64,000 nt of DNA from Dehalococcoidia bacterium (GTDB taxonomy: Bacteria; Chloroflexota; Dehalococcoidia; E44-bin15). The first letter of the stretch is position 1, and every line of letters begins with the position of its first letter. This document shows, piece after piece, positions 3,001 through 56,637 of this stretch. The position numbers and the translations under genes are program-made. The notes under the pieces were generated by a model. The model was not told where the DNA came from, searched no databases, and saw only the letters and a program-made list of their open reading frames with translations. Location of the stretch: NCBI GenBank assembly GCA_030610655.1, contig JAUWRG010000001.1, positions 175 to 64,174 of the forward strand. Reading direction: 5' to 3'.

Positions 3001-3292
3001 GGGGCAACGTTATGTGCTTCGGGAATTACGTGTCATGTTCAGTACGACCGAAGATGAGAATCTGAAGGCCCAAATTAACATTTTGGAGAAAGCATTCCGA
3101 GGGCCAGTGACCATGGCGGTTAATAAAGAGCTGAACAGGAGCCGACGAAATGGAATCATGGGGCAGAACCTGTTTGAAGTATTAAGGGACATTTATTCCC
3201 AACACAACATGCGGGAATGGTTGGACCGAAGGAACTTGCATACTGAGGAGCAGCCCATATCAAGGATTATTTGCAGCGAGTCCTTTAGTTAA
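2..3292 (+). CDS. PLD-family (HKD) nuclease domain fused to an SNF2/SWI2-family helicase; the 5' end lies outside the window
   Basis: The frame is open from position 2. There is an HxKxxxxD motif (GRLHAKAYIFDY), a DEAH-type motif II (LILIDESHNF), a helicase C-terminal domain and a Q..GR..R motif VI (QRFGRIDRIG). The ORF track gives 1015 aa from an internal Met. Confidence 0.75.
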   Translation, partial: DNINRILSSTEAARFAVGYFFLSGLTSIADKLKGVKELRLLIGNTTNRETLEQLAEGYRRLELVKDAAEAQAYPKRAETRQMANETAENIRSSMELMDQTDEGETLVKEMVRMIEEKRLKVKVYTKGRLHAKAYIFDYGMLFDSDGKPVERHEKGIAIVGSSNLTLSGVTHNTELNVVVQGNDNHAELVRWFDDLWKEAQDFDEILMQEMQQSWAVIPVRPYDIYMKTLYSLVKDRIEGGDDKDILWDDEITRDLADFQKVAVRQAFQMIRDYGGVFISDVVGLGKSYIGAAVIKHLERTDRVKPLIICPASLVDMWERYNELYELNARVLSMGYLHEDDDGTSDILLRDVIYRERDLILIDESHNFRYSDTQRYKVMQRFLSTGKRCCFLTATPRNKSAWDVYHQIKLFHQDDKTDLPIDPPDLRQYFRLIEKGEKKLPDLLANILIRRTRNHILRWYGFDSVTHQPVDPSRFREYLDGHRRAYVLVGGRHQFFPKRELETIEYSIEETYQGLYHEIRGYLGKSQKGQPIKPPVNELTYARYGLWNYVVKSKQRQEPYTNLQHAGANLRGLIRVLLFKRFESSVYAFRETIRRLLTTHERFLEALLQGIVPAGDAAQDILYEPNQAEEQDLVDALRQASGRYKAEDFDMDRLQEHIEHDVQLLRKILQLVEPITSEYDDKLQTLKRWLGKMPLKDGKRLVFTQYADTARYLFDNLNPGGKSDDIEVICSGDKSKARVVGRFAPKANPDYHFASGESEITTLFATDVLAEGLNLQDCDKIVNYDLHWSPVRLIQRFGRIDRIGSDYDVIYGYNFLPETGIERNLGLKQKLHNRIQEIHDTIGEDSAILDHTEQLNEEAMYAIYEKKGGQLSLFEDEEDEFVDLNEAEEILRQLKGEKPEEYERISNLRDGIRTAKSSKSKGLYVFCQAGNYQQLFHLDEAGNIITRDIPRILGTIKCGPALEGQKLPEGYNTAVMRVKRQFSEEFKHRQAEREHTLSLSQGQRYVLRELRVMFSTTEDENLKAQINILEKAFRGPVTMAVNKELNRSRRNGIMGQNLFEVLRDIYSQHNMREWLDRRNLHTEEQPISRIICSESFS

Positions 3293-3469
3293 GTTCTCGC
3301 AAATCGCCAATTTTTCAGAACCTATTTGCTGGACTTTCTATAGCCTGTAGTCAGGCTCTCCGAAATCGAATTGATATCCAACAAAGTAGCGATTTGTGTC
3401 CTTCCTGCCGCGACGATACTTGGCAGACCGTCAGCATGATACCATCCCTGTCGCCCTCCCCTTTAATAT

Positions 3470-5083
3470 CTAGTCAAAAATCGTGCTGCACTCTAAAAGC
3501 TCCACCGGTATCCCCACCTCTCGCTCTATGTCAAGGTAAACCCTCCCTGTAAGGTCGCGACCCCATCCTCCCAAACTGAAAGGGGATGATGGGATGACGA
3601 TCAAATCGGGTTTCCCCCCATTCCCCTTCAAATATTCCCTGATGAAGTCGATGAAGTCCTGAACCACGAGGAGGTCGCCCATGAAGATATTCCCCCCAAA
3701 GAAGCTATTCTGAGGGACCCCAATATCTATTCTTAGATTACCGAAGAGGTGGCTTTCGGCGAGCAATTGCTCGAATGTAGGCTTCACCAAGGCAGACGAT
3801 AGGAAAAGAACGTGTTTCGCATTATAGGAATCGATAACTCCTCTCAAACTCTCCAGATAGCTCAGCCTGAGTCCCGTGCCCATGAAAATCACCCCCAGGT
3901 GATGGTCAATCTCCTTGGAGTAGGGATAGCAGAAATCCTCCAGATTAACGCTTAGCTCAATGGACCGGCCCTCTCTTTCAACGGTAAGAGAGACCTCTCC
4001 AATCTCACTGCGCTGAAGGACAGAAAGAAGGTCCCGTGCCTGGGGTCGAGATGAGACGACAATGCTACCGATTTTCAAAACCTGGTCCCCTTTCTTCAAA
4101 CCTGCCCTGGCAGCGGGGGAGTTTTTCACCAAGCCCACGATCCCAGGCAGGTTTTTACGCCCCTTGCAGAGATTCTCCTCATAAATGCTGGGCATAACCA
4201 CAATAGGGCAGATGGCACTATTCCTGAGAATTCTAACAATGGAGATGACCTTTACCCAAACTTCTTCGAGGTCAAAGAGCTTCTCCTGAGAGAAGTACGT
4301 GGAGTAGCCGGGAAGGTTGACCTCCACCAGATGAGCGTCGTTGTGGTCAGCGTAAGCCACGGTGTTTGACAGGTCGTCAAGCATTTCACAAAGGGAATCT
4401 ACAGGCCAGGGAACGATGACCAGAGCATAGGGAATCCCAGCCTCTCTAAGCAAGGGCAAGGAATCAATAGCGACCTGCGGGTTTTTGCCTTTCATCAACC
4501 TTGTGCGGCGCGACGGGCAGACACTATTAAGGGAGAGATAAAGATATACTGGCTTTAACCTCTCCAATTGAGAGATGATTTCAGAGGTCAGAGACTCCCC
4601 ATTTGTGGTTATGCGAAACACCTTCGAGCTCTTCTGCCGGAGTAACTGAAGCACCTCCAAGAAATGGGGATGCATCATTACCTCATAAATGTCACCCAAG
4701 CTTGGGAATAAGCAGGAGCCCTGCTTGGGAAAGAAATAGTCCAGTCTTGTCCTCATCTCCTCAAATTCTTCGGCTGGTGGCCTCCGCAAATTGCCCAAGG
4801 CTAATGAGGGAGGATTACCCTTGTTGCAGCAGAAGATGCAATCGCAGTTACACCTTGACCCTGCATAGCCAAAGATCTCGCTAGGGTCACAAGCAGAGGG
4901 GGAAAGCCAATCCTTCAGATTCTTCAGCCGGAAGCCATCCACCTCGACCACCTCCCCATTCTTCTCGAGGTCGACCACTGATAGGAAGCTCTCCAGTTGC
5001 TTTTTGATGAGCTCTATCCTTGGTTCGTATAAAGAGGCATTCCTGATATCTTGAAAGGAATTCATACCGCACCCCTCAGCCAC
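3470..5083 (-). CDS. radical SAM protein with PDZ domain (PDZ/DUF512-type architecture)
   Basis: CX3CX2C motif (CNCDCIFC); PDZ-like segment (GLKKGDQVLKIGSIVV). Confidence 0.7.
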   Translation of the reverse strand: MAEGCGMNSFQDIRNASLYEPRIELIKKQLESFLSVVDLEKNGEVVEVDGFRLKNLKDWLSPSACDPSEIFGYAGSRCNCDCIFCCNKGNPPSLALGNLRRPPAEEFEEMRTRLDYFFPKQGSCLFPSLGDIYEVMMHPHFLEVLQLLRQKSSKVFRITTNGESLTSEIISQLERLKPVYLYLSLNSVCPSRRTRLMKGKNPQVAIDSLPLLREAGIPYALVIVPWPVDSLCEMLDDLSNTVAYADHNDAHLVEVNLPGYSTYFSQEKLFDLEEVWVKVISIVRILRNSAICPIVVMPSIYEENLCKGRKNLPGIVGLVKNSPAARAGLKKGDQVLKIGSIVVSSRPQARDLLSVLQRSEIGEVSLTVEREGRSIELSVNLEDFCYPYSKEIDHHLGVIFMGTGLRLSYLESLRGVIDSYNAKHVLFLSSALVKPTFEQLLAESHLFGNLRIDIGVPQNSFFGGNIFMGDLLVVQDFIDFIREYLKGNGGKPDLIVIPSSPFSLGGWGRDLTGRVYLDIEREVGIPVELLECSTIFD

Positions 5084-5085
5084 TA

Positions 5086-5337
5086 TTAAAGCGGACGTTC
5101 TTCGAAGAAATCCGATGATTCCTGTTCTTGGGGAAAAATCTTGTGTGTAGTCCTGCGATCCCGGAGCAGCTTGAACCCATCAAGCTTCACCTCACGCTGC
5201 CCCTCCACAGGGATAACAACGGCCAAGATATTCTCCAGTTGCGCTCTTATCATCTCCAAGAGGGGATCCCTAAACACTGGAGTTTTGTTGCTATCGAGTT
5301 TGTAACGGAAAACATAGTCTGCCATCCACCAAATCAC
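5086..5337 (-). CDS. small protein paralogous to the N-terminal ~80 aa of the downstream radical SAM-PDZ protein
   Basis: LLEMIRAQLENILAVVIPVEGQREVKLDGFKLLRDR aligns with IELIKKQLESFLSVVDLEKNGEVVEVDGFRLKNLKDW of ORF 3470-5083. It overlaps its neighbours by 4 bp at each end. Confidence 0.45.
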   Translation of the reverse strand: MIWWMADYVFRYKLDSNKTPVFRDPLLEMIRAQLENILAVVIPVEGQREVKLDGFKLLRDRRTTHKIFPQEQESSDFFEERPL

Positions 5338-6122
5338 CTCCCCTTAAAATCGGGCTTGCGCTTCTCGATAAAAGCTATCATCCCCTCCTTCCGGTCCTCA
5401 CCACTCTCCACTTTGTTTATGAGAGCCATCATCTCAGCCTCATCCTCAGCGCTCATCCTCCGCTGCTTCAGGAGCTTGTTGAAGATAGCCTTGGTGGCGC
5501 TCACCGCAAGCGGCCCGTTCTCGGCGATCTCTTGAGCTAAGGCATAGGTTTTTGCGAGCAATTCCTCTGCTGGAACCACATGATTCACCAGGCCAATCTC
5601 CTTTGCCAACTGGGCATTGATGAACCTGCCAGTGAAGAATAGCTCCTTTGCCCAGGCCACGCCTACAATATTGACTAAGCACTGGGTACCAACAGGCCAG
5701 TAGACACTGCCCATCTTAACCGGGTTTATCCCCATCCTTGCCGTATCAGCAGCGACGCGAATGTCACAGGCCGCAGCCAAATCGCAACCAGCGCCCACGG
5801 CGGCGCCGTAGATCATGGCAATAACTGGTTTGGTACAGGTGATAATACTTCCCCTGGCGTAGTCAAGGGGATTGCCTTTTTGAGCCATCTCATCTTCGGA
5901 TATTGTTATTTCCCCTCTTAGATCCATCCCGGCACAGAAGGCTTTCTCCCCCACACCCCTGAGCACCACAACCCTCACATCCGCATCGTCCTTTAAGGCA
6001 CATAACACATCGCCCAGCCGATACATCAGCTCTACTGTAAGGGCATTGCGCCTCTCTGGGCGATTGATAGCGAGGGTGCAGATATACTCGCCTTTTTCCA
6101 CAAAGAGCATCTCTTCAGCCAT
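5334..6122 (-). CDS. enoyl-CoA hydratase/isomerase (crotonase family)
   Basis: Crotonase-fold signature (FCAGMDL, AMIYGAAVGAGCDLAAACDIRVA). Tandem paralog of ORF 6267-7055. Confidence 0.85.
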   Translation of the reverse strand: MAEEMLFVEKGEYICTLAINRPERRNALTVELMYRLGDVLCALKDDADVRVVVLRGVGEKAFCAGMDLRGEITISEDEMAQKGNPLDYARGSIITCTKPVIAMIYGAAVGAGCDLAAACDIRVAADTARMGINPVKMGSVYWPVGTQCLVNIVGVAWAKELFFTGRFINAQLAKEIGLVNHVVPAEELLAKTYALAQEIAENGPLAVSATKAIFNKLLKQRRMSAEDEAEMMALINKVESGEDRKEGMIAFIEKRKPDFKGR

Positions 6123-28981: not shown

Positions 28982-30040
28982 ATGAACGACCGCCTGGAAA
29001 AGCTGCGTCGCAAGATTGCCAGTGACGGACTGGATGCCATCCTCATCTCCCAGGGGGAGAACCGCCGCTATCTCAGCGGCTTCACCGGCTCGGCAGGCTT
29101 TCTCCTCATATCAGAGAAGAGCGCCATCTTGGCAACCGACTTTCGCTACACCGAGCAGGCGAAAAACCAGGCGTCCGATTTTGACATCGCCCGGATTGAG
29201 GGGGAGATGCAAAAGTGGTTCCCCAAACTCATTTCCTCGCTCGATGCGAAAAGAATAGGATTTGAAGCAAACGACCTTTCCTTTTCAACCTACCAGCAGC
29301 TCATGACGGCGGCGGGTGAGAAGGAACTCGTGCCCACTGAGGGATTTGTAGAGTCGTTGCGCGCCATAAAGGACGATAAGGAACTGGAGCTTATTACCAC
29401 GGCAGTGGAAATCTCCGATGCCGCATTCAACGAGGTCGCCTCGACTATCTGCCCAGGCATGACCGAAAAGCAGGTAGCATGGGAGCTGGAGAAAGCAATG
29501 CGCCAAAATGGCAGCGAACCCATGCCCTTCGAGATTATCGTAGCCTCGGGGCCAAATGCCGCCCTCGCCCACCACAAACCCACCGAGCGCACCATTCTTC
29601 AAGGTGAGCCGGTTATCATCGATATGGGGGCACGCATTGAGGGCTACTCCAGCGATCTGTCCAGAACCATTTGCCTTGGCAACCAGGACGAGGTTTTTGG
29701 TAAAATATATCATCTAGTTCTTCGCGCCCAGCTTGCCGCTATCGCCGCTGTCGAGGCGGGGATGAGTGGAGAGGAGGCAGATGGGCTCGCCAGGACGGTC
29801 ATCGAACAGGGAGGCTATGGGGATAATTTTGGACATGGACTGGGACACGGAGTTGGCCTTGCTCCCCATGAACAGCCTCGTCTGGGGAAAGGCTCTAAGG
29901 ATATTCTCACCGAAGGCATGGTATTCACCATCGAGCCGGGTATTTATATCAGCGGCTGGGGCGGGGTGAGGATCGAGGATACGGCGGTTCTGGAGAATGG
30001 CAAAACGAGGGTGCTCTCCAAAGCGAAGAAGACAGGTTGA
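28982..30040 (+). CDS. pepP: M24 family Xaa-Pro aminopeptidase
   Basis: Creatinase-like N-domain plus M24 pita-bread metal ligands (HGLGHGVG, IEPG). Confidence 0.85.
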   Translation: MNDRLEKLRRKIASDGLDAILISQGENRRYLSGFTGSAGFLLISEKSAILATDFRYTEQAKNQASDFDIARIEGEMQKWFPKLISSLDAKRIGFEANDLSFSTYQQLMTAAGEKELVPTEGFVESLRAIKDDKELELITTAVEISDAAFNEVASTICPGMTEKQVAWELEKAMRQNGSEPMPFEIIVASGPNAALAHHKPTERTILQGEPVIIDMGARIEGYSSDLSRTICLGNQDEVFGKIYHLVLRAQLAAIAAVEAGMSGEEADGLARTVIEQGGYGDNFGHGLGHGVGLAPHEQPRLGKGSKDILTEGMVFTIEPGIYISGWGGVRIEDTAVLENGKTRVLSKAKKTG

Positions 30041-30116
30041 CTTACCAAAGAGGCTTGCGACAGCCATAAAGCTTCACAATAAGAATCCAGGCCTAGTTCG
30101 AAAAGAGGGCGAAGAA

Positions 30117-30677
30117 ATGATCAGCACTGGTGAGCTAAAGAAGGGGATAACCATCGAGCTGGACGGTGAGCTTTACCAAATAATCGACTGGCAACATATC
30201 AAGGTAGGGCGAGGCAGCGCTCAGGTCAGGCTCAAGCTCCGCGATATTCGAGCAGGGCACACCATCGAGCGCACCTTCCAGGCAGGCGAGAAGTTTCCTC
30301 GAGCCAGATTGGACCGCAACACGGTGCAATTCCTTTACAACGATGGCGACCTATACTACTTCATGGACTCGGAAAGCTTCGAACAGTCCACGCTCAGTGG
30401 TAAGCAGGTCGGCGATGCCATCAACTACCTCAAGGAAGGTATGTCTCTAGACATACTTACCTACAAGGATGAACCGATAAACCTGGAGCTTCCCAACTCT
30501 GTGGAGCTTGAGGTTGTGGAAACCGACCCTGGCTTCAGAGGTAATACAGCAACTGCGGCGAACAAGCCAGCCAAGCTGGAAACAGGAATCACCATTCAGG
30601 TCCCTCTCTTCGTAGACAAGGGAGACATCGTCCGTGTTGATACTCGCACTGGCGCATACCTTGAAAGGGCAGGCTAG
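30117..30677 (+). CDS. efp: translation elongation factor P
   Basis: 186-aa EF-P with the KPGKGxA-loop equivalent (IKVGRGSAQVRLKLRD). An ATG at 30117 is preceded by a GAGGG RBS; the ORF track's 29997 start is an unlikely N-terminal extension. Confidence 0.9.
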   Translation: MISTGELKKGITIELDGELYQIIDWQHIKVGRGSAQVRLKLRDIRAGHTIERTFQAGEKFPRARLDRNTVQFLYNDGDLYYFMDSESFEQSTLSGKQVGDAINYLKEGMSLDILTYKDEPINLELPNSVELEVVETDPGFRGNTATAANKPAKLETGITIQVPLFVDKGDIVRVDTRTGAYLERAG

Positions 30678-30697
30678 ATGCAGGTATATTCTGTTAT
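30675..30697. repeat. left copy of a 22-bp direct repeat flanking the inserted island (efp stop + ancestral xseA start)
   Basis: TAGATGCAGGTATATTCTGTTA versus the right copy TAGATGCAGCTATATTCTGTTA at 36646-36667; one mismatch. Confidence 0.8.
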
Positions 30698-30736
30698 GAC
30701 GAAATGGCGGCCTCAAAAATTGGAGGCTAATTTACA

Positions 30737-33361
30737 ATGGCCTTGCATAGCATACTAAAATCAAAAGTTGCTGAATGGGAAAAATCTAATTATACCTCAG
30801 ATTATCCCGTTATTTCTGAGATTTTCAATTACAATCAAAATCCTGAAACTCAGAACTTGCCCTACTTACGAAAAGCCCAGTTTGAAGCCCTTGAAACTTA
30901 CTGGTATTTAAGACTTGTGGAGAAAACCCCTCACATTTTTGAACTCCATAATAGATTGTATCCTAATCCTTTAGATTTTCTGAAAGTCCTCGGAATACCC
31001 ACCGAGAATCAGGAAATTTTAGGACTGGCTTTAACAGGTGGCACAGACAGGATAATTGACCAGATAAGGACAAATGATGAGTTTGTAAAGAGGCATGGAC
31101 TTGAGACTGTAAGGGAAACTTTGACCCTTGAATATCCCAGTTATATCCTAGCTTTGGCAATGGGAGCAGGTAAGACCATCTTGATCGGCACAATTATCGC
31201 TACTGAATTTGCAATGGCTCTTGAATATCCAGAGAATAACTTCGTCAAAAATGCCCTAGTATTTGCGCCGGGTAAGACAATATTAGGAGCATTAAAGGAG
31301 TTATCGGATGTTCCCTATGAAAAAATATTGCCTGAAAGGCTTTATAAGCAGTTCATAACTACCACAAAATTTACCTATACCCGCGATGGCGAAAAAGACA
31401 TCCCGATAATCAAAGGCTCAAGTTTTAATATCGTAGTAACCAATACCGAAAAGATTAGAATACAAAAACACTCAATAACCAAATCCCTAATTAGAGATTT
31501 ATTTGTTGACCCATCCCGGGAAGATGAGGTAAAGGAGGCGATAGCCAATCAGAGATTGCAAACAATTGCCTCGCTTCCAAATCTTGCTATCTTTTCTGAT
31601 GAAGCACACCATACCTATGGACTGGCACTCGGTGAAGAACTGAAGAGAGTGAGACAAACAGTTAATTATCTGTCAGAAAAGACAAATGTTTTAGTTGTGA
31701 TAAACACCACGGGAACCCCATATTATAAAAGGCAGATCCTTAAAGATGTTATTTATTGGTATGGGCTATCACAAGGAATAAAAGATGGAATATTGAAAGA
31801 AGTCCGGGGCAATATTGTATCTTATCCAGAAGTAACCGACAAAGATTTCCTAAAAGATATTATCGCCGATTTCTTCAAGAATTATAAAGATGTAAAAATC
31901 TATGACGGCAGTCCTTCTAAACTGGCAATATATTTCCCCAAAATAGAGGATTTAAAGAATGCCAAACCAGTTGTTGAGAAAAACTTAATAGAACTCGGTT
32001 TAGACCCTTCTGTTATTTTAGAAGTCCATAATGAGTCAAAACAAGAGGTTAAGGATTTATTTGATAACCGAATAAATGACCCTCACCTACCTTATCGCAT
32101 ATTTCTTCTTGTTAATAAAGGGACTGAGGGATGGAACTGCTTATCCCTCTTTTCTACTGCCTTAGCACGCAAACTGACAGCAAGTAATAACTTTTGCCTT
32201 CAAGCCACCTCCCGCTGCCTCAGGCAAACTCCCGGCAATATACACAAGGCAAAAATATACCTTTCCAAAGATAATGTCGGAATTTTAGACGCCCAACTTA
32301 AAGAGACCTATGGTGAAACTCTTGAAGATTTAAATAGAACTTCACAAGATATGAGAGAGGATAGACTAATTTTGAGGAAAGTAGAAATACCACCTGTTTT
32401 ACTCAAAAAGAAGATTCGAAAAGTTCTGCCTAAAGAAGTGCTGTCAGATATTAGTCAAATGGAGTTTAAGAAGATTGAAGGAGAAAAAGAGAAGTTTAGA
32501 AAGACTATCCATAGCCTTGATGACATTCCTCAGAGGAAGGGAGTCTTAATTTTTGTAAGAGAAGAGGAGATAGAAATTATTGAAGATTTCGTGGATAGTT
32601 ATACCTTTGCTGTGGAACTATCAAGCCTTTATCGCCTACCCCTTATGTTAATATACGACAAATTGAAGGAGTTGTATCCCGAAGGCGAGATTCCTGAAAG
32701 CGATGCCATTGAACTTAAAAGGCAAATAGAAGAGCAAGTGCGAAACTACGAAATAAAAGAGGAAGAGGTAGAATTTGCCCTTGCTCTCATAAGACCCGAG
32801 GGCTTCAATAAGGAGGAAAAAGACGGCAAGAGTATATATGTAACCGAGATAGTCTATCATAAAGACAAGGAGAAATACCTATTAAAGTGGGATGAGTTTA
32901 AAGATAAATTTAAGAGAGACTTCGGCTTCCACTATAATCCCTATAAATTCGATTCTTCTCCTGAGAAGGAATTTTTTACCTGGCTTCTTGAAAACTTGAA
33001 CGAAGACCCGGCAGATGTTGAAGACATCTATTATACCGGTGGTATGGATGACCCCAATAAGACAGACTTTCTCTTTGAATATAAGGCTAAAGATGGCAGG
33101 TATCATAACTATGCACCTGATTTCCTGATAAGAAGAAAAAGTGGGAAAATAATAATTGTGGAGGTAAAAGCAGAGCGCTTCAAAGATGAAGAGAAGGAAA
33201 AGGAGATGAGAAGGATTGAAGGGCTAAACCCTGATAGATTAAAGTATGAAATTGTAGAGACCAAAGGTGAACAGCTAGCTTTTGAGGGTTTAAATAAAGT
33301 TAGAGAAGCAATCTATGAGTATGGCAGTAAAGGGGTAAATAAGAATGCTTACTCAGTCTGA
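30737..33361 (+). CDS. Type III restriction Res-like SF2 helicase with a C-terminal PD-(D/E)xK nuclease motif
   Basis: Motif I AMGAGKT, motif II FSDEAHH, motif III NTTGTP, motif VI QATSRCLRQ, and C-terminal PDFLIRRK...IIIVEVKAE. AT-rich codon usage unlike the flanking genes. Confidence 0.7.
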   Translation: MALHSILKSKVAEWEKSNYTSDYPVISEIFNYNQNPETQNLPYLRKAQFEALETYWYLRLVEKTPHIFELHNRLYPNPLDFLKVLGIPTENQEILGLALTGGTDRIIDQIRTNDEFVKRHGLETVRETLTLEYPSYILALAMGAGKTILIGTIIATEFAMALEYPENNFVKNALVFAPGKTILGALKELSDVPYEKILPERLYKQFITTTKFTYTRDGEKDIPIIKGSSFNIVVTNTEKIRIQKHSITKSLIRDLFVDPSREDEVKEAIANQRLQTIASLPNLAIFSDEAHHTYGLALGEELKRVRQTVNYLSEKTNVLVVINTTGTPYYKRQILKDVIYWYGLSQGIKDGILKEVRGNIVSYPEVTDKDFLKDIIADFFKNYKDVKIYDGSPSKLAIYFPKIEDLKNAKPVVEKNLIELGLDPSVILEVHNESKQEVKDLFDNRINDPHLPYRIFLLVNKGTEGWNCLSLFSTALARKLTASNNFCLQATSRCLRQTPGNIHKAKIYLSKDNVGILDAQLKETYGETLEDLNRTSQDMREDRLILRKVEIPPVLLKKKIRKVLPKEVLSDISQMEFKKIEGEKEKFRKTIHSLDDIPQRKGVLIFVREEEIEIIEDFVDSYTFAVELSSLYRLPLMLIYDKLKELYPEGEIPESDAIELKRQIEEQVRNYEIKEEEVEFALALIRPEGFNKEEKDGKSIYVTEIVYHKDKEKYLLKWDEFKDKFKRDFGFHYNPYKFDSSPEKEFFTWLLENLNEDPADVEDIYYTGGMDDPNKTDFLFEYKAKDGRYHNYAPDFLIRRKSGKIIIVEVKAERFKDEEKEKEMRRIEGLNPDRLKYEIVETKGEQLAFEGLNKVREAIYEYGSKGVNKNAYSV

Positions 33362-33818
33362 GGCAGATGCTTTAATCGATATGCGAAAGAAACTCGCCAA
33401 AAAAGAAGTGTATAATTTCCCTCCGGCTGGCGAAATATTAACTATTCCTATTATCTCTGTGGACGAAAGGGAATCTTTCTTGATAGATATAAACAGAGGA
33501 AGCATCAGGCTTACCAAATGCACTTATCAGGAACGCTACCAGAGGATAATTACCCTCGTGCGTCTTGATATCGATGGACCTCCACATCCTAATCCAGAGG
33601 TGGTGAATATTCCATTTCCTCACCTTGAACCCTATAACGGACAGACGATACCTTGTCCCCATTTACACCTCTATGTGGAAGGATTTATGGATAAATGGGC
33701 AATTCCATCTCCGTCTGAGAAATTTCCAAGAACAACCGACCTCGTTGCAATTCTAGCCGATTTCTTCCGCTACTGTAACGTTGTTGAACTACCGGCAATA
33801 CAAAGGGGGATGTCTTGA
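33345..33818 (+). CDS. hypothetical protein (157 aa), translationally coupled inside the res-mod-like operon
   Basis: Overlaps the upstream stop by 17 bp and the downstream start by 4 bp. I recognise no motif. Confidence 0.5.
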   Translation: MLTQSEADALIDMRKKLAKKEVYNFPPAGEILTIPIISVDERESFLIDINRGSIRLTKCTYQERYQRIITLVRLDIDGPPHPNPEVVNIPFPHLEPYNGQTIPCPHLHLYVEGFMDKWAIPSPSEKFPRTTDLVAILADFFRYCNVVELPAIQRGMS

Positions 33819-34582
33819 TTTTAAAAGACTGTCAAGATTTGGTTAATGCTTATATTGAATGGCTTCAACAGAGAATTAACGTAGAAGATATAAAAGGAGT
33901 TTGTGAGATTACCACCCCCTTTGTTGATAGACACAATGACCAGCTACAGATATATGTCAAGCCTTCTAATAATAGGCTCATTCTTACAGATGATGGCTAT
34001 ACCATTAAAGACTTAAAAATAAGTGGATTTGAAATTACAACTGAAAAAAGACGACAAATACTCTATTCTATATTAAATGGTTTTGCTGTCCAACTTCATG
34101 GAGATGAGCTTACTGTGGAAGCAACGCCGGATAACTTTGCCCAAAAAAAGCATAATCTTATTCAGACTATGCTTGCGGTAAATGACCTTTGGACTATGAC
34201 TGAACCAATGGTAGCAAGCCTTTTTAGAGAAGATGTAGAAAGATACTTGCGCGAGCATAAAATCCGATTTACTCCCTCAATCAAGTTTGCTGGAAAGAGC
34301 GGTTTAGACCATTCTTTTGATTTTGTAATTCCGGCTTCGCCTGTAAAACCAGAAAGAATACTCAATGCCATTAGCAATCCGACACGGCAAAATATCTCCT
34401 TGCTAATCTTTTCTTGGACTGAGATAACAGAAGTGAGAGCACCCGATTCTACTGCCTATGGAGTTTTAAATGATACAGAGAAACAGGTAAGTCCTGATCT
34501 TATTGATGCACTCCAGCGGTATTATATTAGACCTATACAATGGAGCCGTAGAGCTGAGTATGTTGAGGAACTCGCATCATAA
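33815..34582 (+). CDS. hypothetical protein (255 aa) resembling DUF1828/DUF1829-type proteins
   Basis: The motif EITTPFVDRHNDQLQIYV...LILTDDGYTIKDL matches my recollection of the DUF1828 N-terminal signature. Not verified. Confidence 0.45.
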   Translation: MILKDCQDLVNAYIEWLQQRINVEDIKGVCEITTPFVDRHNDQLQIYVKPSNNRLILTDDGYTIKDLKISGFEITTEKRRQILYSILNGFAVQLHGDELTVEATPDNFAQKKHNLIQTMLAVNDLWTMTEPMVASLFREDVERYLREHKIRFTPSIKFAGKSGLDHSFDFVIPASPVKPERILNAISNPTRQNISLLIFSWTEITEVRAPDSTAYGVLNDTEKQVSPDLIDALQRYYIRPIQWSRRAEYVEELAS

Positions 34583-34593
34583 GGGATAAGGCT

Positions 34594-36603
34594 ATGGCTG
34601 AGAATAAAATCAAGATTACCCCCGCTAAAGGGCGACCAATGCTTCACTGGGTGGGCAAAAAGCCTTCGGATTATGTAAAAGGCTTCCCTACTCAACTTGT
34701 TGAAGTTTTTGACCCGTTGAATAATGGGCAGAGAATTGAAACGCCGACTTACGATGAACTAAAAGACAACTGGCAAAACTTACTCTTTCACGGTGATAAC
34801 AAAGATGTTTTAGCCACACTTCTTGAATTAGGATTTAGGGGAAAGATTGATTTAATTTATATTGACCCGCCATTTAAAAGCGGCGCTGATTATGTAAGAA
34901 AGATTGAACTGCGGGGATTAAAGAATTTAGGGCGAATAGAAGAAGATGAGGCGTCACTACTTCAGCAGACAATGTATTTTGATATTTGGAACAATGACAG
35001 CTATTTGCAGTTTATGTATCATAGATTGATACTTTTGAAGGAGTTATTAAGTGATGCAGGAAGCATTTGTCTGCATTGCGATTATAGACAAAATAGTTAT
35101 TTGAGATTGATAATGGATGAAATTTTTGGTGCGGATAATTTCAGAAATGAAATTATTGTGCGAAGAGGGGTCAAAAGCCTTCAAGCCCAGTTTGATATGA
35201 TCGATTCCTTATCCTCTGGTAATGACACTATCTTGGCGTATGTAAAAGATCCCAATACAAAGTTTAAAAAGTTAGAAATTGAACTTACAGAATCGCGGCA
35301 AGGGACTTGGAATAACCATTGGAGAGGCACTGATCGCCCTACGATGCGATATGAATTATTTGGGATAACACCAACACACGGCCAATGGCGATGGAGTAAA
35401 GAACGCTCAATGAACGCTATTGAGAATCATAAGGCATTTCTCAAGGTGGCAGACAAGTATTCAAGCATTGACGAGTATTATTTGGAGAAGAAAGCAGCCG
35501 GAATTGAACTAGATTTCTTGCGTCTTAACAATAAAGGGAAACCAGAACATTATGTGCCGACTACAGACATTAGACTTTCAAGTACGCTATGGACTGACAT
35601 CTCTGCATATGATAGTGGCTCTTCCTTTCAGACACAAAAAAGTGAGGAATTACTTGAAAGAATCATTGATTGGTTAACCAACCCCGGCGAACTCGTCCTT
35701 GACTGTTTCATCGGCTCGGGCACAACTGCTGCTGTTGCTCAGAAACTTGGCCGGCGATGGATTGGCTGCGATATAAACAAAGGGGCAATTCAGACGACAA
35801 GCAAGAGGTTACAAAAGGTAATTCTTGAACAGATAAAATCCCCCTCTAATCCCCCTTTATTAAAGGGGGAAGTAGGGGGATTTGCTGTTTACAAGGTCAA
35901 TGACTACGATTTGCAACTTTTAAGAACCGAGGCGATTGAACTTGCCGTCCAGCATATCGGTATTCAGAAGATAAGAACCGATGCATTCTTTGACGGATAC
36001 CTGGGGAAAAACCTAGTTAAAGTTATTGACTTCAACCATCCATTAACTCTTTTGGATTTACAACTTCTTCAAGACGAACTCAAGAAAAGACCAGATGAAG
36101 ATAGGGATATTACCATCGTCTGCCTTGGCAAAGAATTAGCCGTCGACCCCGAAATTGAAAAATGGAATAAAAAACACCCAGTAAATAAGATTAAAGTAAT
36201 TGAATTAAAAACAGATAAAAAATATGGCAGTTTCTTAATCCATAAACCAGCGGAGGCAAAGATAGAGATTCTTCCCCTTCACTTCGTTCAGGGTCAGAAT
36301 GACAGATTGGCAATAATAGAGATTCAAGATTTTATCTCACCTACCATAATTGAGCGGCTTAATATTGATAATACTCTTTTCAAAGTAAAAATCCCCGACT
36401 TTAGAAGTATGATAGACACAGTTTTGATTGACACAAATTACGATGGTAAAACCTTCCATATAGTTCATTCAGATGTTCCAAAGAGGAAAGATGACTTAGT
36501 CAAAGGAAAATATGAAATCGAGCTTCCAAAATCAAAAACAAAAGTCGCAGTAAAAATAATTGATATGCTTGGAGAAGAGATTATAAATGTTTTCGAGGTA
36601 TAA
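34594..36603 (+). CDS. beta-class N6-adenine/N4-cytosine DNA methyltransferase, Type III Mod-like
   Basis: Motif IV IDLIYIDPPFKSG precedes motif I VLDCFIGSGTTAAVA (beta circular order); N-terminal LLFHGDNKDVLATL; 669 aa. Confidence 0.8.
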   Translation: MAENKIKITPAKGRPMLHWVGKKPSDYVKGFPTQLVEVFDPLNNGQRIETPTYDELKDNWQNLLFHGDNKDVLATLLELGFRGKIDLIYIDPPFKSGADYVRKIELRGLKNLGRIEEDEASLLQQTMYFDIWNNDSYLQFMYHRLILLKELLSDAGSICLHCDYRQNSYLRLIMDEIFGADNFRNEIIVRRGVKSLQAQFDMIDSLSSGNDTILAYVKDPNTKFKKLEIELTESRQGTWNNHWRGTDRPTMRYELFGITPTHGQWRWSKERSMNAIENHKAFLKVADKYSSIDEYYLEKKAAGIELDFLRLNNKGKPEHYVPTTDIRLSSTLWTDISAYDSGSSFQTQKSEELLERIIDWLTNPGELVLDCFIGSGTTAAVAQKLGRRWIGCDINKGAIQTTSKRLQKVILEQIKSPSNPPLLKGEVGGFAVYKVNDYDLQLLRTEAIELAVQHIGIQKIRTDAFFDGYLGKNLVKVIDFNHPLTLLDLQLLQDELKKRPDEDRDITIVCLGKELAVDPEIEKWNKKHPVNKIKVIELKTDKKYGSFLIHKPAEAKIEILPLHFVQGQNDRLAIIEIQDFISPTIIERLNIDNTLFKVKIPDFRSMIDTVLIDTNYDGKTFHIVHSDVPKRKDDLVKGKYEIELPKSKTKVAVKIIDMLGEEIINVFEV

Positions 36604-36645
36604 TAAAGATGAAACCGCCACTTCATGTGGCACGGTGTAAAAGTA

Positions 36646-36667
36646 TAGATGCAGCTATATTCTGTTA
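36646..36667. repeat. right copy of the 22-bp direct repeat; contains the functional xseA start codon
   Basis: See 30675-30697. Confidence 0.8.
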
Positions 36668-49702: not shown

Positions 49703-50269
49703 TTATTCACTCATTTTCATAGATAGATACGATTAGATTGGCTCTTCCTCTAAGCACAGTCAATTTTAGCCTAGGTAGCGATGGTTTAGCAAGCCACTGC
49801 TTCTCGTTGGTCTTGCTAAAATAGATGAGCGGCATCTTCGCCGTATTGAAAGGCACTCTTCTATAGGAGGGAACCTTGATGTAAAGCAAAAAGTGGACTC
49901 TAGGAAGTAACTTCTTTGACGGCATCCACTACTTGCTTCAATACATCTTTGAAGAGCCTGCCAGCTAGGTCTCCGGTCGTCTCTGGCTCTACTATTGAGC
50001 CTAGCCTTGGCACAATAAGCCAGGGTAATCTCCTTCGCCACAGTCAAAGCATCGTCTGCCATAATTTTTACCTCCCTTTGGCCATTATACGTATTATGAG
50101 GACAATAAGCTGGTAGACAGGCTGTCTAAAAACCTCATTCCGCGTAGCGTCGTGACTCCTGTCACGACGAAGAATTCGTCCTTCAGCAGAAGGACGCTAC
50201 CCTTTTGGGACGGCCTGTAGATATGATATTTGCTTGATTTAGGACTGAAATTGTGTAGTGACCACCAGC

Positions 50270-50503
50270 TTAAGCATAGACTTTTATATTGTGCTGCTCA
50301 AGAAGTTTAGCTATTTCTGACTCGTATGGCAAACCGGTTATGTCTACGCCGCTACCTACGTAAAGTAGTTCAACGCCTATAACAGTTCCATCTTCTGCAT
50401 AGTCAATAAATCTTGTTTCATCAAGCTCCTTAGAATATGAGTAAGGTAACTTATTAATGAGGATGTAAGCACAGTCAGCATCGCGGTCATACTGGAATTC
50501 CAT
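50270..50503 (-). CDS. DUF2283-family small protein (putative antitoxin-like partner)
   Basis: 77 aa; pairs with the upstream DUF4258-like gene. Confidence 0.5.
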   Translation of the reverse strand: MEFQYDRDADCAYILINKLPYSYSKELDETRFIDYAEDGTVIGVELLYVGSGVDITGLPYESEIAKLLEQHNIKVYA

Positions 50504-50518
50504 AGAGCCTCCTTTAGT

Positions 50519-50767
50519 TTAGTCGAGAACGATAGCCGTTATGATTCTTAATGGGCTGGTATTCTTACGAACGACTACTCTAAGTCTCTTTCCGTTTTTC
50601 AAGTAGCCGACAAAACAATCATTACCTTCTTTATCCTTGTACGCTATATCATAGGAATCAAGAACGTTTTCGACTTCTGCCCTTGTTATCGCACGTTGCT
50701 TCATTCGATTCCGAGCATGATGTTGAAATTTGTAAGCTTCCCCGCCCGGTGTCTCATACACTTTCAT
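50519..50767 (-). CDS. DUF4258-family small protein (putative toxin-like)
   Basis: 82 aa; basic N-terminus (HHARNRMKQRAITRAEVENVL). Confidence 0.5.
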   Translation of the reverse strand: MKVYETPGGEAYKFQHHARNRMKQRAITRAEVENVLDSYDIAYKDKEGNDCFVGYLKNGKRLRVVVRKNTSPLRIITAIVLD

Positions 50768-50932
50768 TTTCTACCCTCCCAGTAAGTTTTGTCAATTCCG
50801 CCAACTAACTGTTACCAGCTGGTTTTTGGTTCCTTTTAGTACGTTATGCTACATCTAACTAGAAGTCAAGCTCTTAACTGCTTGACAAAGCTGCCGCTGT
50901 TATGGTAATATATAGCATGGAGGAGGTGAACT

Positions 50933-51691
50933 ATGCTAAACCAGTCCGAAAAAAACAAGAAACGGGAGGTGTCGCGGTATTCCTATCCATATTATGATTT
51001 AGAAAGTGCCATTCAAGTTACTAAGATACTCTATGACCAGGCAGGTGGTAAAACCTCATTCGCACAATTAGCTTCCTACCTTGGGCATAAGGATGAATCC
51101 AGCGGAACGTTCATTGCTAAGATTTGGGCAGCTAAGTTATTGGGGCTTGTCCAAGTTCAGACTCAAACTGTATCCACCACAGAATTAGGCGAACGATTGA
51201 CAACACTTCAGCCCGGTTTACAGAGGGATAGGCGGCTTGCGGATGCCTTTCTGAATGTACCGCTGTTTCGCGAGGTCTATAAGAGATTTGAAAATTCAAC
51301 ACTCCCTTCAACACGAGAAGGACTTTTGAACGTTCTACAAAGTACTTTTGGTGTTCCTTCCAAACGTGCGCCAGTGGCTTTGAAGGTGTTGTTGGCTTCA
51401 GCGGAGCAAGCTAATTTTAAGCGCGCTGACCCCAATCGGCTGATTCACCCTGTGCCCGCGGGGTTGATGGAAAGAGAAGCTTTAGCGAAAGCTGAAGCTG
51501 AGCAAGAAGAACCAGTATCTAATGCTCCTCAGTTGGAAACACCACTGAGGAAGGTGCATCCAGCTATAAGTGGCTTTCTCCAAGAGCTCCCATCTAAGGG
51601 AGAGCGATGGACTACAAGCGACCAGCAGAGATGGCTCGATGCTTTTACCGCCATGATTAAGGCTCTTTACCCAAGTGAAGACAGCGATTAG
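50933..51691 (+). CDS. hypothetical protein
   Basis: 252-aa ORF preceded by a GGAGGAGG RBS; no recognised motif. Confidence 0.4.
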   Translation: MLNQSEKNKKREVSRYSYPYYDLESAIQVTKILYDQAGGKTSFAQLASYLGHKDESSGTFIAKIWAAKLLGLVQVQTQTVSTTELGERLTTLQPGLQRDRRLADAFLNVPLFREVYKRFENSTLPSTREGLLNVLQSTFGVPSKRAPVALKVLLASAEQANFKRADPNRLIHPVPAGLMEREALAKAEAEQEEPVSNAPQLETPLRKVHPAISGFLQELPSKGERWTTSDQQRWLDAFTAMIKALYPSEDSD

Positions 51692-52955: not shown

Positions 52956-53140
52956 AATAAATCACCAGTTAGCTACTTTGCCCAGGGCTTCTCTGTCTGT
53001 AGGACGGATATCTAGATTTTGCGCTATAAGTGCCGCGCCAGTATTACCTAGGGCGACGAAAACTTTCTCAACTTTGGGGCTTTGGGCCATCTTCTATACC
53101 AAGGTGTGTTCCCTGCCCCGTCCACCAATAACTAGTATCT

Positions 53141-54346
53141 TCACAGTTCACCTCTGTAATCCTTATTACTTAGGTTGTTTTTCTTCCGAAGCATTTCCCT
53201 TAACAAGTCCCGTGCCACCCTGTCTTCCATTTTTGTCTTGCTTAGAAGATCTTCTGACTCATGCTTTGGCAGCATCTCTGCTATAAATCTCATTAGTTCC
53301 ACTGAAGGGTAGAAATATTGCATTCCGTAGTGCACACAGCCCATATTAAGCTTAAGGAGCTTGAATATCTGCGCTACGAGTTTTCTTCGTTCGTTATCCG
53401 TTAGTATAGTTGTGTTGAGCCAAAACTCGCCGTTGTTGGTTACAACTTGAACGGAAAGCGGGTCAGGGAACCATAGGTGGAGATTCAAGTATAAGCGAAA
53501 AGGGAAATCATTAACCGCTTGGCACAATTCCCTCAATTCCTTAAGGAGATCATCGCTTTCCCCAGTACTCATATCGGGGAAATAAGGCGGGCGCATATGC
53601 CTCCCTTCATCTCTTCGTTTTTTAATTATCTCCTCGATTGTCTCCTTGGGGCACCCATCCAACTCCATTTGCTGCTTCGCCTCTTCCTCATCTTTAGCGA
53701 TATAAGTCTCAAGCTGGGTAATATCCCGCTCGAGGTTTTCATCGTATTTGTGAATTGCATTCACCTCTAATTGCCTTTCCGTTGCCTCCCCAACGTGTTT
53801 CTCAAGTATCCCGGCGTGTCCCCTTTTCACTCGTTCTTCTTCCTTTAGTCGCCTTTCCATTTCCACCTTTTGCAAGCCAAGTGTATGATCGTAAATCTTC
53901 TCAATCATCCTATCAGCAACCTCTACTGCCGATTCCCAATTTCCCGGTTTATATTTTTTGATTATCCTCCTCGTTTTTCCTGTCGACGAATCATAAATCC
54001 TAATAAAGGACAGTTTTGTTGTAAAGAATCCGCCTGTTTTTAAATTATATGTAGTTTTTCCACCTGTCATATCCTCTATCGTTTGGATGTGTATCCCCAA
54101 CTTATAAAAAGATATACCTCTAAAGGTATCCCCACTAACTGGTGAGACGATTTCTCGAATGCTAAAACTTTTACTAATCACTTTCCCGATCATACTTGCC
54201 GTTTCGTCTATGTTCACAACTTTGCCTAGCAACTCTCCTTTCAACCGCCTCTTGCCTAGACTCATATGCTTCCTCCTTTGAGCAAAAGTTTTAACCTCAA
54301 AATCACTTACATTTGCGAGTTCATTTCCTGTTTGGCCTTTAAGCAC
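53141..54346 (-). CDS. hypothetical protein (401 aa)
   Basis: Long ORF overlapping the upstream gene by 40 bp; charged coiled-coil middle region; no recognised motif. Confidence 0.4.
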   Translation of the reverse strand: MLKGQTGNELANVSDFEVKTFAQRRKHMSLGKRRLKGELLGKVVNIDETASMIGKVISKSFSIREIVSPVSGDTFRGISFYKLGIHIQTIEDMTGGKTTYNLKTGGFFTTKLSFIRIYDSSTGKTRRIIKKYKPGNWESAVEVADRMIEKIYDHTLGLQKVEMERRLKEEERVKRGHAGILEKHVGEATERQLEVNAIHKYDENLERDITQLETYIAKDEEEAKQQMELDGCPKETIEEIIKKRRDEGRHMRPPYFPDMSTGESDDLLKELRELCQAVNDFPFRLYLNLHLWFPDPLSVQVVTNNGEFWLNTTILTDNERRKLVAQIFKLLKLNMGCVHYGMQYFYPSVELMRFIAEMLPKHESEDLLSKTKMEDRVARDLLREMLRKKNNLSNKDYRGEL

Positions 54347-54867
54347 TCCCAGACACCTACGCTTATCCCATCAAGCCAGTAACTGATTCTTTCCACTAGC
54401 TCCTGGAGACTCTTAAAGTTGATATTGCGCAGCTCTGAAGCTGAAATCGAGGGTTTACCATTCTTGTCAACAGGATACCGAAAAGCGTATGAGTTAGGGT
54501 CCCATTCTGAAAATTTATTGATGTCCTCCTGCACAGCATCAAGGTCGGTTTCACGTTTATTACGTCCATCTTTCGACAGCCTTGCTAGCTCATCTTTGTC
54601 TATTTCTTCCAAGAGGCCTTTACAATCCCCCCACAGTTCACCTATTTTATGATGTTGCTGATATCGCAATAAACCTGGAGCTTTACCCAAAACCTGATTG
54701 CCATCTTGGATTATCTCTTTGATCCTTAATTCGATATACTGCCGATACAGAAATATTACTGGAAAGACGAGGGTATTTTGATCACCATGAGTAACGCAAT
54801 GTTCGACTAGTATGTCGCCAGCCAACTTATAACCTACTGCATATCGACCCCAGCTTAGATATCCCAA
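54307..54867 (-). CDS. hypothetical protein (186 aa), possible HEPN-like
   Basis: Contains an Rx4HH motif (LRYQQHHKIGELW); first gene of the overlapping pair. Weak evidence. Confidence 0.35.
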   Translation of the reverse strand: MGYLSWGRYAVGYKLAGDILVEHCVTHGDQNTLVFPVIFLYRQYIELRIKEIIQDGNQVLGKAPGLLRYQQHHKIGELWGDCKGLLEEIDKDELARLSKDGRNKRETDLDAVQEDINKFSEWDPNSYAFRYPVDKNGKPSISASELRNINFKSLQELVERISYWLDGISVGVWECLKAKQEMNSQM

Positions 54868-54876
54868 GGCTACTCC

Positions 54877-56637
54877 TCAATCAAGCCTCAACCTGAGATG
54901 AAGTTCCTTAAGCTGCTCGTCAGACACCTCGGCAGGGGCATCGAACATCTGGTCCACCGCGCTCTGGTTCTTAGGGAAGGGGATAACCTCCCTGATGGTC
55001 TCCGCCCCAGCGAGGATCATCACCAGCCTATCGATCCCAGGGGCGATGCCGCCATGGGGCGGAGCACCGTATTCGAAAGCCTCAAGAAGGTGTCCGAAAC
55101 GCTGCTCGATCTCCTCCTCTCCATATCCCAACAACCTGAGGATTTTCTCCTGAAGCTCCCTTGTATGGATCCTTATACTTCCGCTGGAAAGCTCGCAGCC
55201 ATTGCAGACAATATCATAGTGCCTGGCATGCACCCTTTCCGGCGCGCTATCCAGCAGGGGCACATCCTCATCCTTGGGCGCAGTAAATGGATGATGCATC
55301 GACTCCCATCCGCCACCTTCTCCCCTCTCGAATAGGGGATAATCGAGAACCCAGCAGAAGGCAAGGAGGCTGGGGTCTGCAAGGTCCAAGCGCCGCGCAA
55401 TCTCCCCACGCAACGCGCAAAGCGCCTCGGCAACAATGTTTGGTTCGCCAGCAACGATGAGCAGGAGGTCCCCCTCCTTTGCCTCGAACCGTTTTGCTAT
55501 CTCGTCAATCTGCCCCGTAGTCAGAAACTTGGCAGCCACGGACTTCCCCTGTTCTTCACCCAGTGGTAAGCTGACCAGCCCCTTTGCCCCACGAGCCTGG
55601 ACAAACTCAGCCAGCTCATTTATCTGGCGACGCGAGTAATTGCCGCAGCCCGGGGCACATATCCCCCTCACCCTACCCCCCGCATCTATAGCGGAGCGAA
55701 ACACAGCGAAATCGCACTCAGCCGCAATGTCCGCCAAATCCTTGATCTCAAGGCCGTAGCGCAGGTCGGGTTTGTCCGTGCCATAGCGCTCCATAGCCTC
55801 AGCGAATGATAGACGGGGGAAGGGCTTCAACACTCGCATGTTTGGCGTGACATTCTCCACCAGTGAGGTGAAAAGCTCCTCCATGAGTGTCAGGATATCT
55901 TCTTCTTCGACAAAGCTCATCTCCAGGTCGAGTTGAGTGAACTCAGGCTGCCGGTCGGCCCGCTGGTCCTCGTCGCGGAAGCACCTGGCAATCTGGTAAT
56001 ACCTGTCGAAGCCAGCCACCATTAATAGCTGCTTGAGCTGCTGTGGGGACTGCGGTAGGGCGTAGAACTTCCCAGGATGGACTCGGCTAGGCACCAGGTA
56101 GTCCCGCGCCCCCTCAGGGGTGCTCTTGATAAGGATCGGAGTCTCGATCTCGATAAAGCCTCTAGCCTCCAGGAAATCGCGCATGAACTTGATCACGCGA
56201 TGGCGCAGGATAATATTATCCCTCAGCTTCTCACGGCGCAGGTCAAGATAGCGATATTTGAAGCGAACGCTCTCTTCCACCTCAACGTCCTCATTCACAT
56301 TAAACGGCGGCGTCTTTGAGGCATTGAGTATCTCCACGCCCCGTGCAATCACCTCAACCTCCCCGGTGGCGAGCTTTGGATTCTCCGTTCCTGGGGGGCG
56401 CTTCCCCACATCACCGGAAACCTTCACCACGTACTCATTGCGCAACTTAGTTGCCACCTCATGCACCTGCGCCGATATCTCGGGATTGAAGACCACCTGC
56501 ACTAGGCCATCCCGGTCCCGCAGGTCGATGAAAACGAGCCCACCATGATCCCTCCGCCGATGCACCCAGCCAGCAAGGATCACCTGTTCACCGACGTTCT
56601 TGCTGGTTAACTGACCGCAATAATGAGTCCTAAACAT
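54877..56637 (-). CDS. aspS: aspartate--tRNA ligase
   Basis: Class II aaRS motifs and the N-terminal OB anticodon-binding domain ([36 protein letters not shown]). Confidence 0.95.

Follow-up and report, generated by a model that had tools for sequence, protein, structure and literature searches.

The question raised by this locus is what two small genes are doing inside a restriction-type operon. In the 64,000-nucleotide stretch of Dehalococcoidia bacterium contig JAUWRG010000001.1 (hereafter the window) these genes, designated here as A and B, lie between a nuclease-helicase gene and a DNA methyltransferase gene, and their products may be either subunits of the surrounding system or cargo carried by it. 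The reading preferred here, to which a probability of roughly 60% is given, is that A-B represents an instance of the phage defence candidate PDC-M24, an autonomous and exchangeable cassette in the slot between res and mod, which acts as an independent second-line anti-phage module with A as the effector and B as the regulator. The original prediction, based on the letters of the window, had listed two open reading frames (ORFs) of 157 and 255 amino acids at 33345-33818 and 33815-34582 with a nuclease-helicase and a methyltransferase on either side. Both ORFs exist as described and their neighbours are of the predicted kinds, namely a ResIII/PD...EVK Res upstream and an N6_N4 Mod downstream. 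The parts of the locus are the following.

30737..33361, + strand: res-like gene, 874 amino acids, a ResIII superfamily 2 (SF2) DEAH helicase with a C-terminal PD-(D/E)xK nuclease (Pfam, PADLOC and motifs).
33345..33818, + strand: gene A, 157 amino acids, ATG start, Pfam DUF6978 and PADLOC PDC-M24A.
33815..34582, + strand: gene B, 255 amino acids, TTG start that overlaps A's stop codon, with DUF1828 and DUF1829, PADLOC PDC-M24B.
34594..36603, + strand: mod-like gene, 669 amino acids, an N6_N4 DNA methyltransferase (Pfam, PADLOC).
33325..34590, + strand: embedded cassette, comprising the last ~12 codons of res, A, B and the spacer ahead of mod, as delimited by the loss of blastn homology.

The evidence that separates subunits from cargo comes from the state of the slot in related operons. 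A metagenome scan with alignment of Res homologues provided 80 loci with Res 63-88% identical, and the slot census was taken over the 54 loci in which both Res and Mod ORFs were callable, with the following states.

Res and Mod adjacent or overlapping, with an intact Mod of 578-654 amino acids: 18 of 54.
Other, unrelated genes in between: 31 of 54.
A-B present: 4 of 54.
Just the first 73 codons of A (locus L105, 2793-3014): 1 of 54.

Inserted genes of at least 600 base pairs occupied the slot in 35 of the loci counted, and 49 of these close Res-Mod loci had no A-B and yet kept intact genes. A component of the enzyme is expected to be conserved wherever Res and Mod are conserved, and with its presence in 4 of 54 loci A-B does not behave as one. 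The stump at L105 is a decayed cassette, which shows the host operon outliving its cargo. The other cargos of the slot belong to known defence genes or candidates for such: PDC-S02 (YhcG/DUF1016 PD-(D/E)xK), PDC-S06 (AAA_13, LmuB-like), PDC-S32, an ATPase-Toprim nuclease of OLD/GajA-like type and a radical SAM / PDC-M30A-like protein; some proteins of the slot are without any match.

The borders of the insert are also visible in DNA. When the window was compared by blastn with loci L096-L103, the sequences were 72-89% identical up to positions 33322-33324 and again from 34589-34601, and homology was lost between ~33324 and ~34590 (the start of mod) in all of them except L099, which shares A-B; in the window res the last ~12 codons come from the cassette side of the junction. 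An empty slot is found at L097 (4738-4744), where the TAA stop of Res is followed by 1 nucleotide and then by the ATG of Mod. Since four different slot states occur among loci whose Res is 85-88% identical to that of the window, the cargo is turned over much faster than the host genes, and its exchange presumably proceeds through recombination within the conserved flanking sequences, res 3' and mod 5'. The slot census, the homology breaks and the empty slot together indicate that Res-Mod is self-sufficient and that A-B is one of many alternative inserts. Res and Mod thus constitute the host system, which lies outside the cassette and offers a slot for cargo, and from the sequences compared A-B is most likely co-transcribed with this Type III-like operon and dispensable to the restriction system.

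Several observations on the slot deserve separate description. At L099 (5204-7411), where Res is 85% identical to that of the window, A-B is accompanied by an additional 293-amino-acid gene before Mod, whose length is close to that of the PDC-S32-type cargo found at other loci, so that two cassettes appear to be stacked within one slot. A pair of ~430- and ~355-amino-acid proteins occupies the slot of eight loci (L108 at 3057-5412, L111, L113, L118, L136, L148, L151 and L156); it matches neither Pfam nor PADLOC models and may be an uncatalogued embedded defence candidate. Other cargos without Pfam or PADLOC match are a pair of 82 and 348 amino acids (L109, 3700-5006; L123, 2996-4302) and a 237-amino-acid protein (L102, 2887-3600).

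The genes A and B are tightly coupled and move together, as a single two-gene cassette. This was seen in a set of 80 loci from species-representative genomes encoding B relatives at 45-75% identity, 79 of which had room upstream of B: in 73-75 of these an A-like gene stood directly upstream and shared the strand of B, the distance from the end of the A match to the start of the B match was 0-42 nucleotides with a median of 15, and the identities of A and B to the window proteins were correlated (r = 0.91). Homologues of A form 990 clusters and those of B 2451 clusters, both at 60-99% identity, and they come from many phyla of both bacteria and archaea, with WS2, Armatimonadota, Bacillota, Brocadiia, Methanosarcinales and Thermoplasmata among them; because of this number of clusters and breadth of phyla A and B are to be considered real genes rather than chance ORFs.

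The pair has a place in an existing catalogue. In Payne et al. study (bioRxiv 10.1101/2024.01.29.577857) 145 phage defence candidates, the PDC systems, were described as embedded in BREX, DISARM or Type I restriction-modification (RM) operons; PDC-M24 is there the cassette CAS_00098, FAM_00129>>FAM_00065, listed with the figure 153, which is taken here as the instance count. The A protein of the window matches PADLOC PDC-M24A (PDLC04538) with E 7e-56, residues 1-155 against profile positions 1-143 of 146, and B matches PDC-M24B (PDLC04539) with E 3.3e-100, residues 5-254 against positions 3-254 of 255. Along with both profile matches the two genes are adjacent, share the strand and stand in the order A then B, and like the catalogued PDC-M24 they are embedded co-directionally in a multi-gene defence system. 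The host is what differs from the defining set of BREX and DISARM as well as Type I RM systems, being a Type III-like Res-Mod operon here and the Hma system at other loci.

The A protein, in which the original prediction had found no recognisable motif, belongs over its full length to Pfam DUF6978 (E 8.9e-42, 143 bits against a gathering threshold of 29.6). The family comprises 1196 clusters at 50% identity, nearly all of them stand-alone proteins of 145-160 amino acids, and a search for domain fusions returned N-terminal extensions without Pfam domain and one fragment joining A to DUF1828. In the latter (P0490, 243 amino acids, from the representative search) a single ORF holds DUF6978 followed by the start of DUF1828, so that either A and B are naturally fused in it or a frameshift at the 4-nucleotide overlap has produced an artefact. 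The predicted model of A is beta-rich, with a predicted local distance difference test (pLDDT) score of 90, and no solved structural relative of it was found; a BFVD Foldseek search with A gave no match, and an IMG/VR scan returned one weak locus only. Neither A nor B matched the PDB by sequence, whether single sequences or profiles were used. In the alignments the residues D48, C59, Q62, R64, D75, G78, H81, N83, N98, H106, H108, E112, D116 and W118 of A are invariant or nearly so, and the conserved cluster consists of H81, N83, H106-x-H108-x3-E112, D116 and W118; the core R-L-x-I-x-G-x2-H-x-N ... H-x-H-L-Y is kept even in the distant 152-amino-acid relative from prophage Lj965. This His/Asn/Glu cluster is a probable metal or catalytic site. 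Two specific assignments were considered and set aside: an HNH or His-Me finger, suggested by the H...N...H spacing, had no beta-beta-alpha-metal match in the fold, and a cupin-like HxHxxxE motif was without fold support.

The B protein had been assigned to DUF1828 with a DUF1829-like C-terminal half from the peptide EITTPFVDRHNDQLQIYV...LILTDDGYTIKDL, which corresponds to residues 31-67 of B, and the Pfam profiles confirmed this assignment: PF08861 (DUF1828) matches residues 34-122 with E 5.6e-29 (100.7 bits, gathering threshold 22) and PF08862 (DUF1829) matches residues 160-246 with E 3.5e-28 (98.4 bits, gathering threshold 22.2). The predicted fold of the N-terminal domain is that of a type III secretion chaperone or YbjN-like protein, with the order alpha-beta-beta-beta-alpha-beta-beta-alpha matching the solved members. 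It resembles class I type III secretion chaperones and YbjN-DUF2170 proteins (8q8o_B, 3cxj_A, SpcU 4akx_A, Spa15 2xga_A) at only 8-18% sequence identity, and B had no match to the Pfam CesT and YbjN families even at E <= 10; no secretion genes were found near B. The domain also differs from type III secretion chaperones in an invariant acidic/His cluster that they lack, its invariant polar residues in the alignment being E31, D38-R-H-N-D42, D59-D60, H113 and N123-D124. In the DUF1829 half E139-D140, R151, D169, E180-R181, R208 and N219-D220 are conserved. A possible PD-(D/E)xK nuclease assignment for this half received no support from weak Pfam hits or a PDB profile search, hhalign of DUF1829 with the nuclease domain of Res gave a probability of 0.4%, and the conserved D169...E180-R181 is missing the Lys position.

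A literature search on DUF1828, DUF1829, DUF6978 and PDC-M24 returned no functional study except for one on a DUF3037+DUF1829 protein. According to the DefensePredictor study (PMC13092281), this protein (DS-6B / HipAD) forms, with a HipA-like kinase as its partner, a two-gene defence system that was validated, and is proposed to be antitoxin-like, binding its partner and DNA. B is similar to it in the presence of DUF1829, as judged from the domain description, and the protein compared is the non-toxin partner of its pair; the differences are that it carries DUF3037 rather than DUF1828 at the N-terminus and that its partner is a HipA-like kinase rather than a DUF6978 protein.

From the folds, the conserved residues, the way in which translation of the two genes is coupled and the precedent of HipAD, a division of labour can be proposed for the cassette. 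The effector would be A, as a small beta-rich enzyme whose metal site is of His/His/His/Glu type, as suggested by the invariant H81, N83, H106, H108, E112 and D116. B would be the regulator or sensor of A, as suggested by its fold and by the antitoxin-like precedent of DUF1829 (PMC13092281): its N-terminal chaperone-like domain may bind A or a phage protein, and the C-terminal DUF1829 domain may serve for trigger recognition or nucleic-acid binding. Infection would then free or activate the effector, and phage growth would be stopped, possibly at the cost of the cell. The sensing or abortive-infection role which the original prediction had offered among its options is a reasonable guess. A more specific version is rather doubtful. 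In it the chaperone-like domain of B would capture a protein of the phage, perhaps a DNA mimic whose anti-restriction action is aimed at the methylation-based system around the cassette, and B would then free or activate A, a metalloenzyme of new fold that aborts infection; back-up modules in general, several family-less cargo pairs included, would dock in the res-mod slot.

The cassette is also found in other homes. In three genome loci (L003, L004 and L069) A-B has HmaB (DUF1156 methylase) on one side and HmaC (DUF499 ATPase) on the other, and clustering of neighbours placed it within Hma systems in at least 7 loci, the blastp clustering being insensitive (342 clusters from 390 proteins). 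At L003 (10905-11927) a stand-alone Type II-like methyltransferase of 341 amino acids follows A-B directly, before HmaC. Other operonic neighbours include Type I components (Methylase_S, N6_Mtase, EcoEI_R_C), Eco57I/MmeI-type enzymes, SIR2, Schlafen-like and AbiEii-like ATPases, and PIN, and in one lineage a ParA-like gene is followed by A-B and then by an HSDR_N protein. The recurrent association with restriction-type genes that had been anticipated is thus real, both as Res-A-B-Mod in unrelated flanks and as A-B inside Hma or beside Type I components. No operonic neighbour at all was present in 20 of 77 genome loci. The IncP plasmid pRSB223 encodes a B protein of 45% identity together with a clear A (hidden Markov model E 5e-40), and temperate Firmicute phages carry relatives at ~30% identity; in prophage Lj965 the A-like/B-like pair belongs to the lysogeny module, where it has the repressor/metalloprotease genes on one side and those for superinfection exclusion and integrase on the other. 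The arrangement resembles that of the Hma-embedded systems (Septu, HEC-01 to HEC-09), in which a variable slot of a helicase/methylase system holds alternative defence cassettes; the validated HEC systems differ in being based on ABC-ATPase, GmrSD-like or RNase proteins and have no domain in common with A-B.

Three other explanations were weighed against an independent defence cassette. On the first, Res-A-B-Mod would be a system of four components, with A and B as integral parts of it that serve for specificity, sensing or as effector. This would agree with the translational packing of the four genes, with the lack of a terminator-like site in the intergenic gaps and with the repetition of the same four-gene order in at least six unrelated contexts. 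The coupling by overlapping stop and start codons, which had been claimed for the whole set, holds for Res/A (17 nucleotides) and A/B (4 nucleotides, TTGA), and not for B and Mod, which are spaced by 11 nucleotides. Against this stand the 49 of 54 loci that remain intact without A-B, the many unrelated cargos of the same slot, the locus with the stump of A only, the homology breaks that mark A-B as an insert, and the occurrence of A-B in Hma, plasmid and prophage settings without a Res-Mod of the window type. The choice of subunits over passengers made by the original prediction is contradicted by the rarity of A-B in the census, the breaks at the cassette borders, the empty slot and the other hosts, and the comparative data largely refute this explanation, leaving it a very small probability. 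A selfish role, as a toxin-antitoxin or addiction cassette or as cargo of a mobile element with no part in defence and with insertion-tolerant defence loci serving as a "genomic sink", is likewise quite improbable: two small, co-evolving and translationally coupled genes, spread horizontally over bacterial and archaeal phyla and present on a plasmid and in prophages, would suit it, as would the genomic-sink idea of the cited literature, but the slot is shared with bona fide defence genes and the prophage copy sits in a lysogeny module beside a superinfection-exclusion gene. Moreover, toxin-antitoxin-like modules often act in phage defence, and the selfish explanation overlaps to this extent with the preferred one.

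The third explanation is that A-B guards methylation-based defences in the manner of PrrC, being silent while the host complex is intact and firing upon its inactivation by an anti-restriction protein such as a DNA mimic. The host systems would be Type III-like, Hma, Type I and BREX, and the chaperone-like domain of B would bind the host complex or the phage inhibitor. The likeness to PrrC in the EcoprrI Type Ic hsd operon is that a non-RM gene is nested in an RM operon and co-transcribed with it, and PrrC is the classic model of a second-line defence backing up the surrounding system. In favour of the guard are the repeated embedding of A-B, co-oriented and tightly packed, in systems of helicase/ATPase plus methyltransferase (Type III-like, Hma), the Type I components among its operonic neighbours, the definition of PDC-M24 from instances embedded in BREX, DISARM and Type I, and the PrrC-EcoprrI precedent itself, together with embedded systems triggered by Ocr or Stp that are discussed in 10.1101/2024.01.29.577857. 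However, the host systems are unrelated in sequence, which makes a specific physical partnership hard to picture, 20 of the 77 genome loci have no operonic neighbour and others lie beside non-defence genes, and the prophage and plasmid copies are outside any RM operon. PrrC combines ABC-ATPase and anticodon nuclease in one protein and is nearly confined to Type I RM, whereas A-B consists of two proteins, without either of these domains by Pfam, and occurs with many host systems and outside RM operons. Host dependence of the PrrC type is a live alternative, weakened by the diversity of hosts and the solo copies, and we consider it unlikely.

The reading of A-B as an autonomous PDC-M24 cassette has itself several points against it. 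The full Res-A-B-Mod unit is found again between unrelated genomic flanks, of which there are at least six, with Res 66-85% and A/B 68-78% identical; the embedded A-B travels with its host, and this recurrence in unrelated genomes is compatible with a functional cooperation between A-B and Res-Mod. The polar invariants of B are odd for a mere chaperone, and the catalytic partner could be B instead of A. The model of B, built from 23 sequences, has pLDDT <50 for residues 127-193, which makes the fold of its C-terminal domain unreliable. Finally, the anti-phage role of PDC-M24 has the status of a catalogued candidate only.

The name Type III-like was chosen for the host operon because the match of Res to PADLOC REase_III was weak (6e-5) and its NCBIfam match was far under the cut-off. 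Res matches Pfam ResIII with 28.1 bits (cut-off 22.5) and a TnsA-like nuclease weakly, and its GAGKT Walker A motif, DEAH box and C-terminal PDF...VEVK are invariant in the alignment. For Mod the Type III Mod models were the best match (PADLOC MTase_III, 2.7e-59), and PF01555 was matched with 4e-41. Both parts of a Type III RM system were found, a Mod with a methyltransferase and a variable target-recognition region and a Res with an SF2 helicase and a nuclease. In characterised Type III systems the usual gene order is mod then res; here res stands ahead of mod. Within mod one segment has no counterpart in relatives, and to judge by its flanks it is probably a swapped target-recognition region.

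35157..35690, + strand: central segment of mod, DNA homology missing in all relatives, whose identity on either side of it is 74-88% (blastn gap).

The whole operon, made up of four co-directional and tightly packed genes (res-like, A, B and mod-like), occupies an island in the window.

30691..36646, + strand: low-GC (guanine plus cytosine) island with the four-gene operon between efp and xseA (composition profile, Pfam on flanking genes, blastn).
30661..30690, + strand: promoter-like site TTGAAA-18-TATATT upstream of res, a consensus match only.

The GC content of the island is 38-41% against a background of ~53% in the composition profile, and blastn alignments of it with related Res-Mod loci begin at 30691-30703 and run to 36614-36646. 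The sole + strand terminator-like site of the operon is at 32126-32149, within res, and a Shine-Dalgarno-like sequence precedes each start. The exact sequence is also present on metagenome contigs, with identical flanks. The GC content is lowered in other patches of the window as well (50001-51000, 53001-55000 and 2001-3000; 0.42-0.45 against ~0.53), and these may likewise have been acquired horizontally. The ORF listed for efp (29997-30677 of the window) overlaps the upstream M24 peptidase ORF by 44 nucleotides and EFP_N begins at residue 43, and its real start is probably further downstream.

In summary, A-B of the window is an additional instance of the catalogued candidate PDC-M24, so that the kind of system is already known, and "guilt by embedding" is extended by it to the Type III-like Res-Mod family, a host type outside the original PDC survey. 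For annotation, additional genes in an RM operon should not be presumed to be subunits. The res-mod junction is a hot spot of cargo exchange and a rich source of additional candidates, without a match among the Pfam or PADLOC models. If A-B proves to be a working defence system, it would be a widespread two-protein immune module of many phyla, plasmids and prophages, with a DUF6978 component that has no recognisable structural relative, and three Pfam families, DUF6978, DUF1828 and DUF1829, would gain a function.

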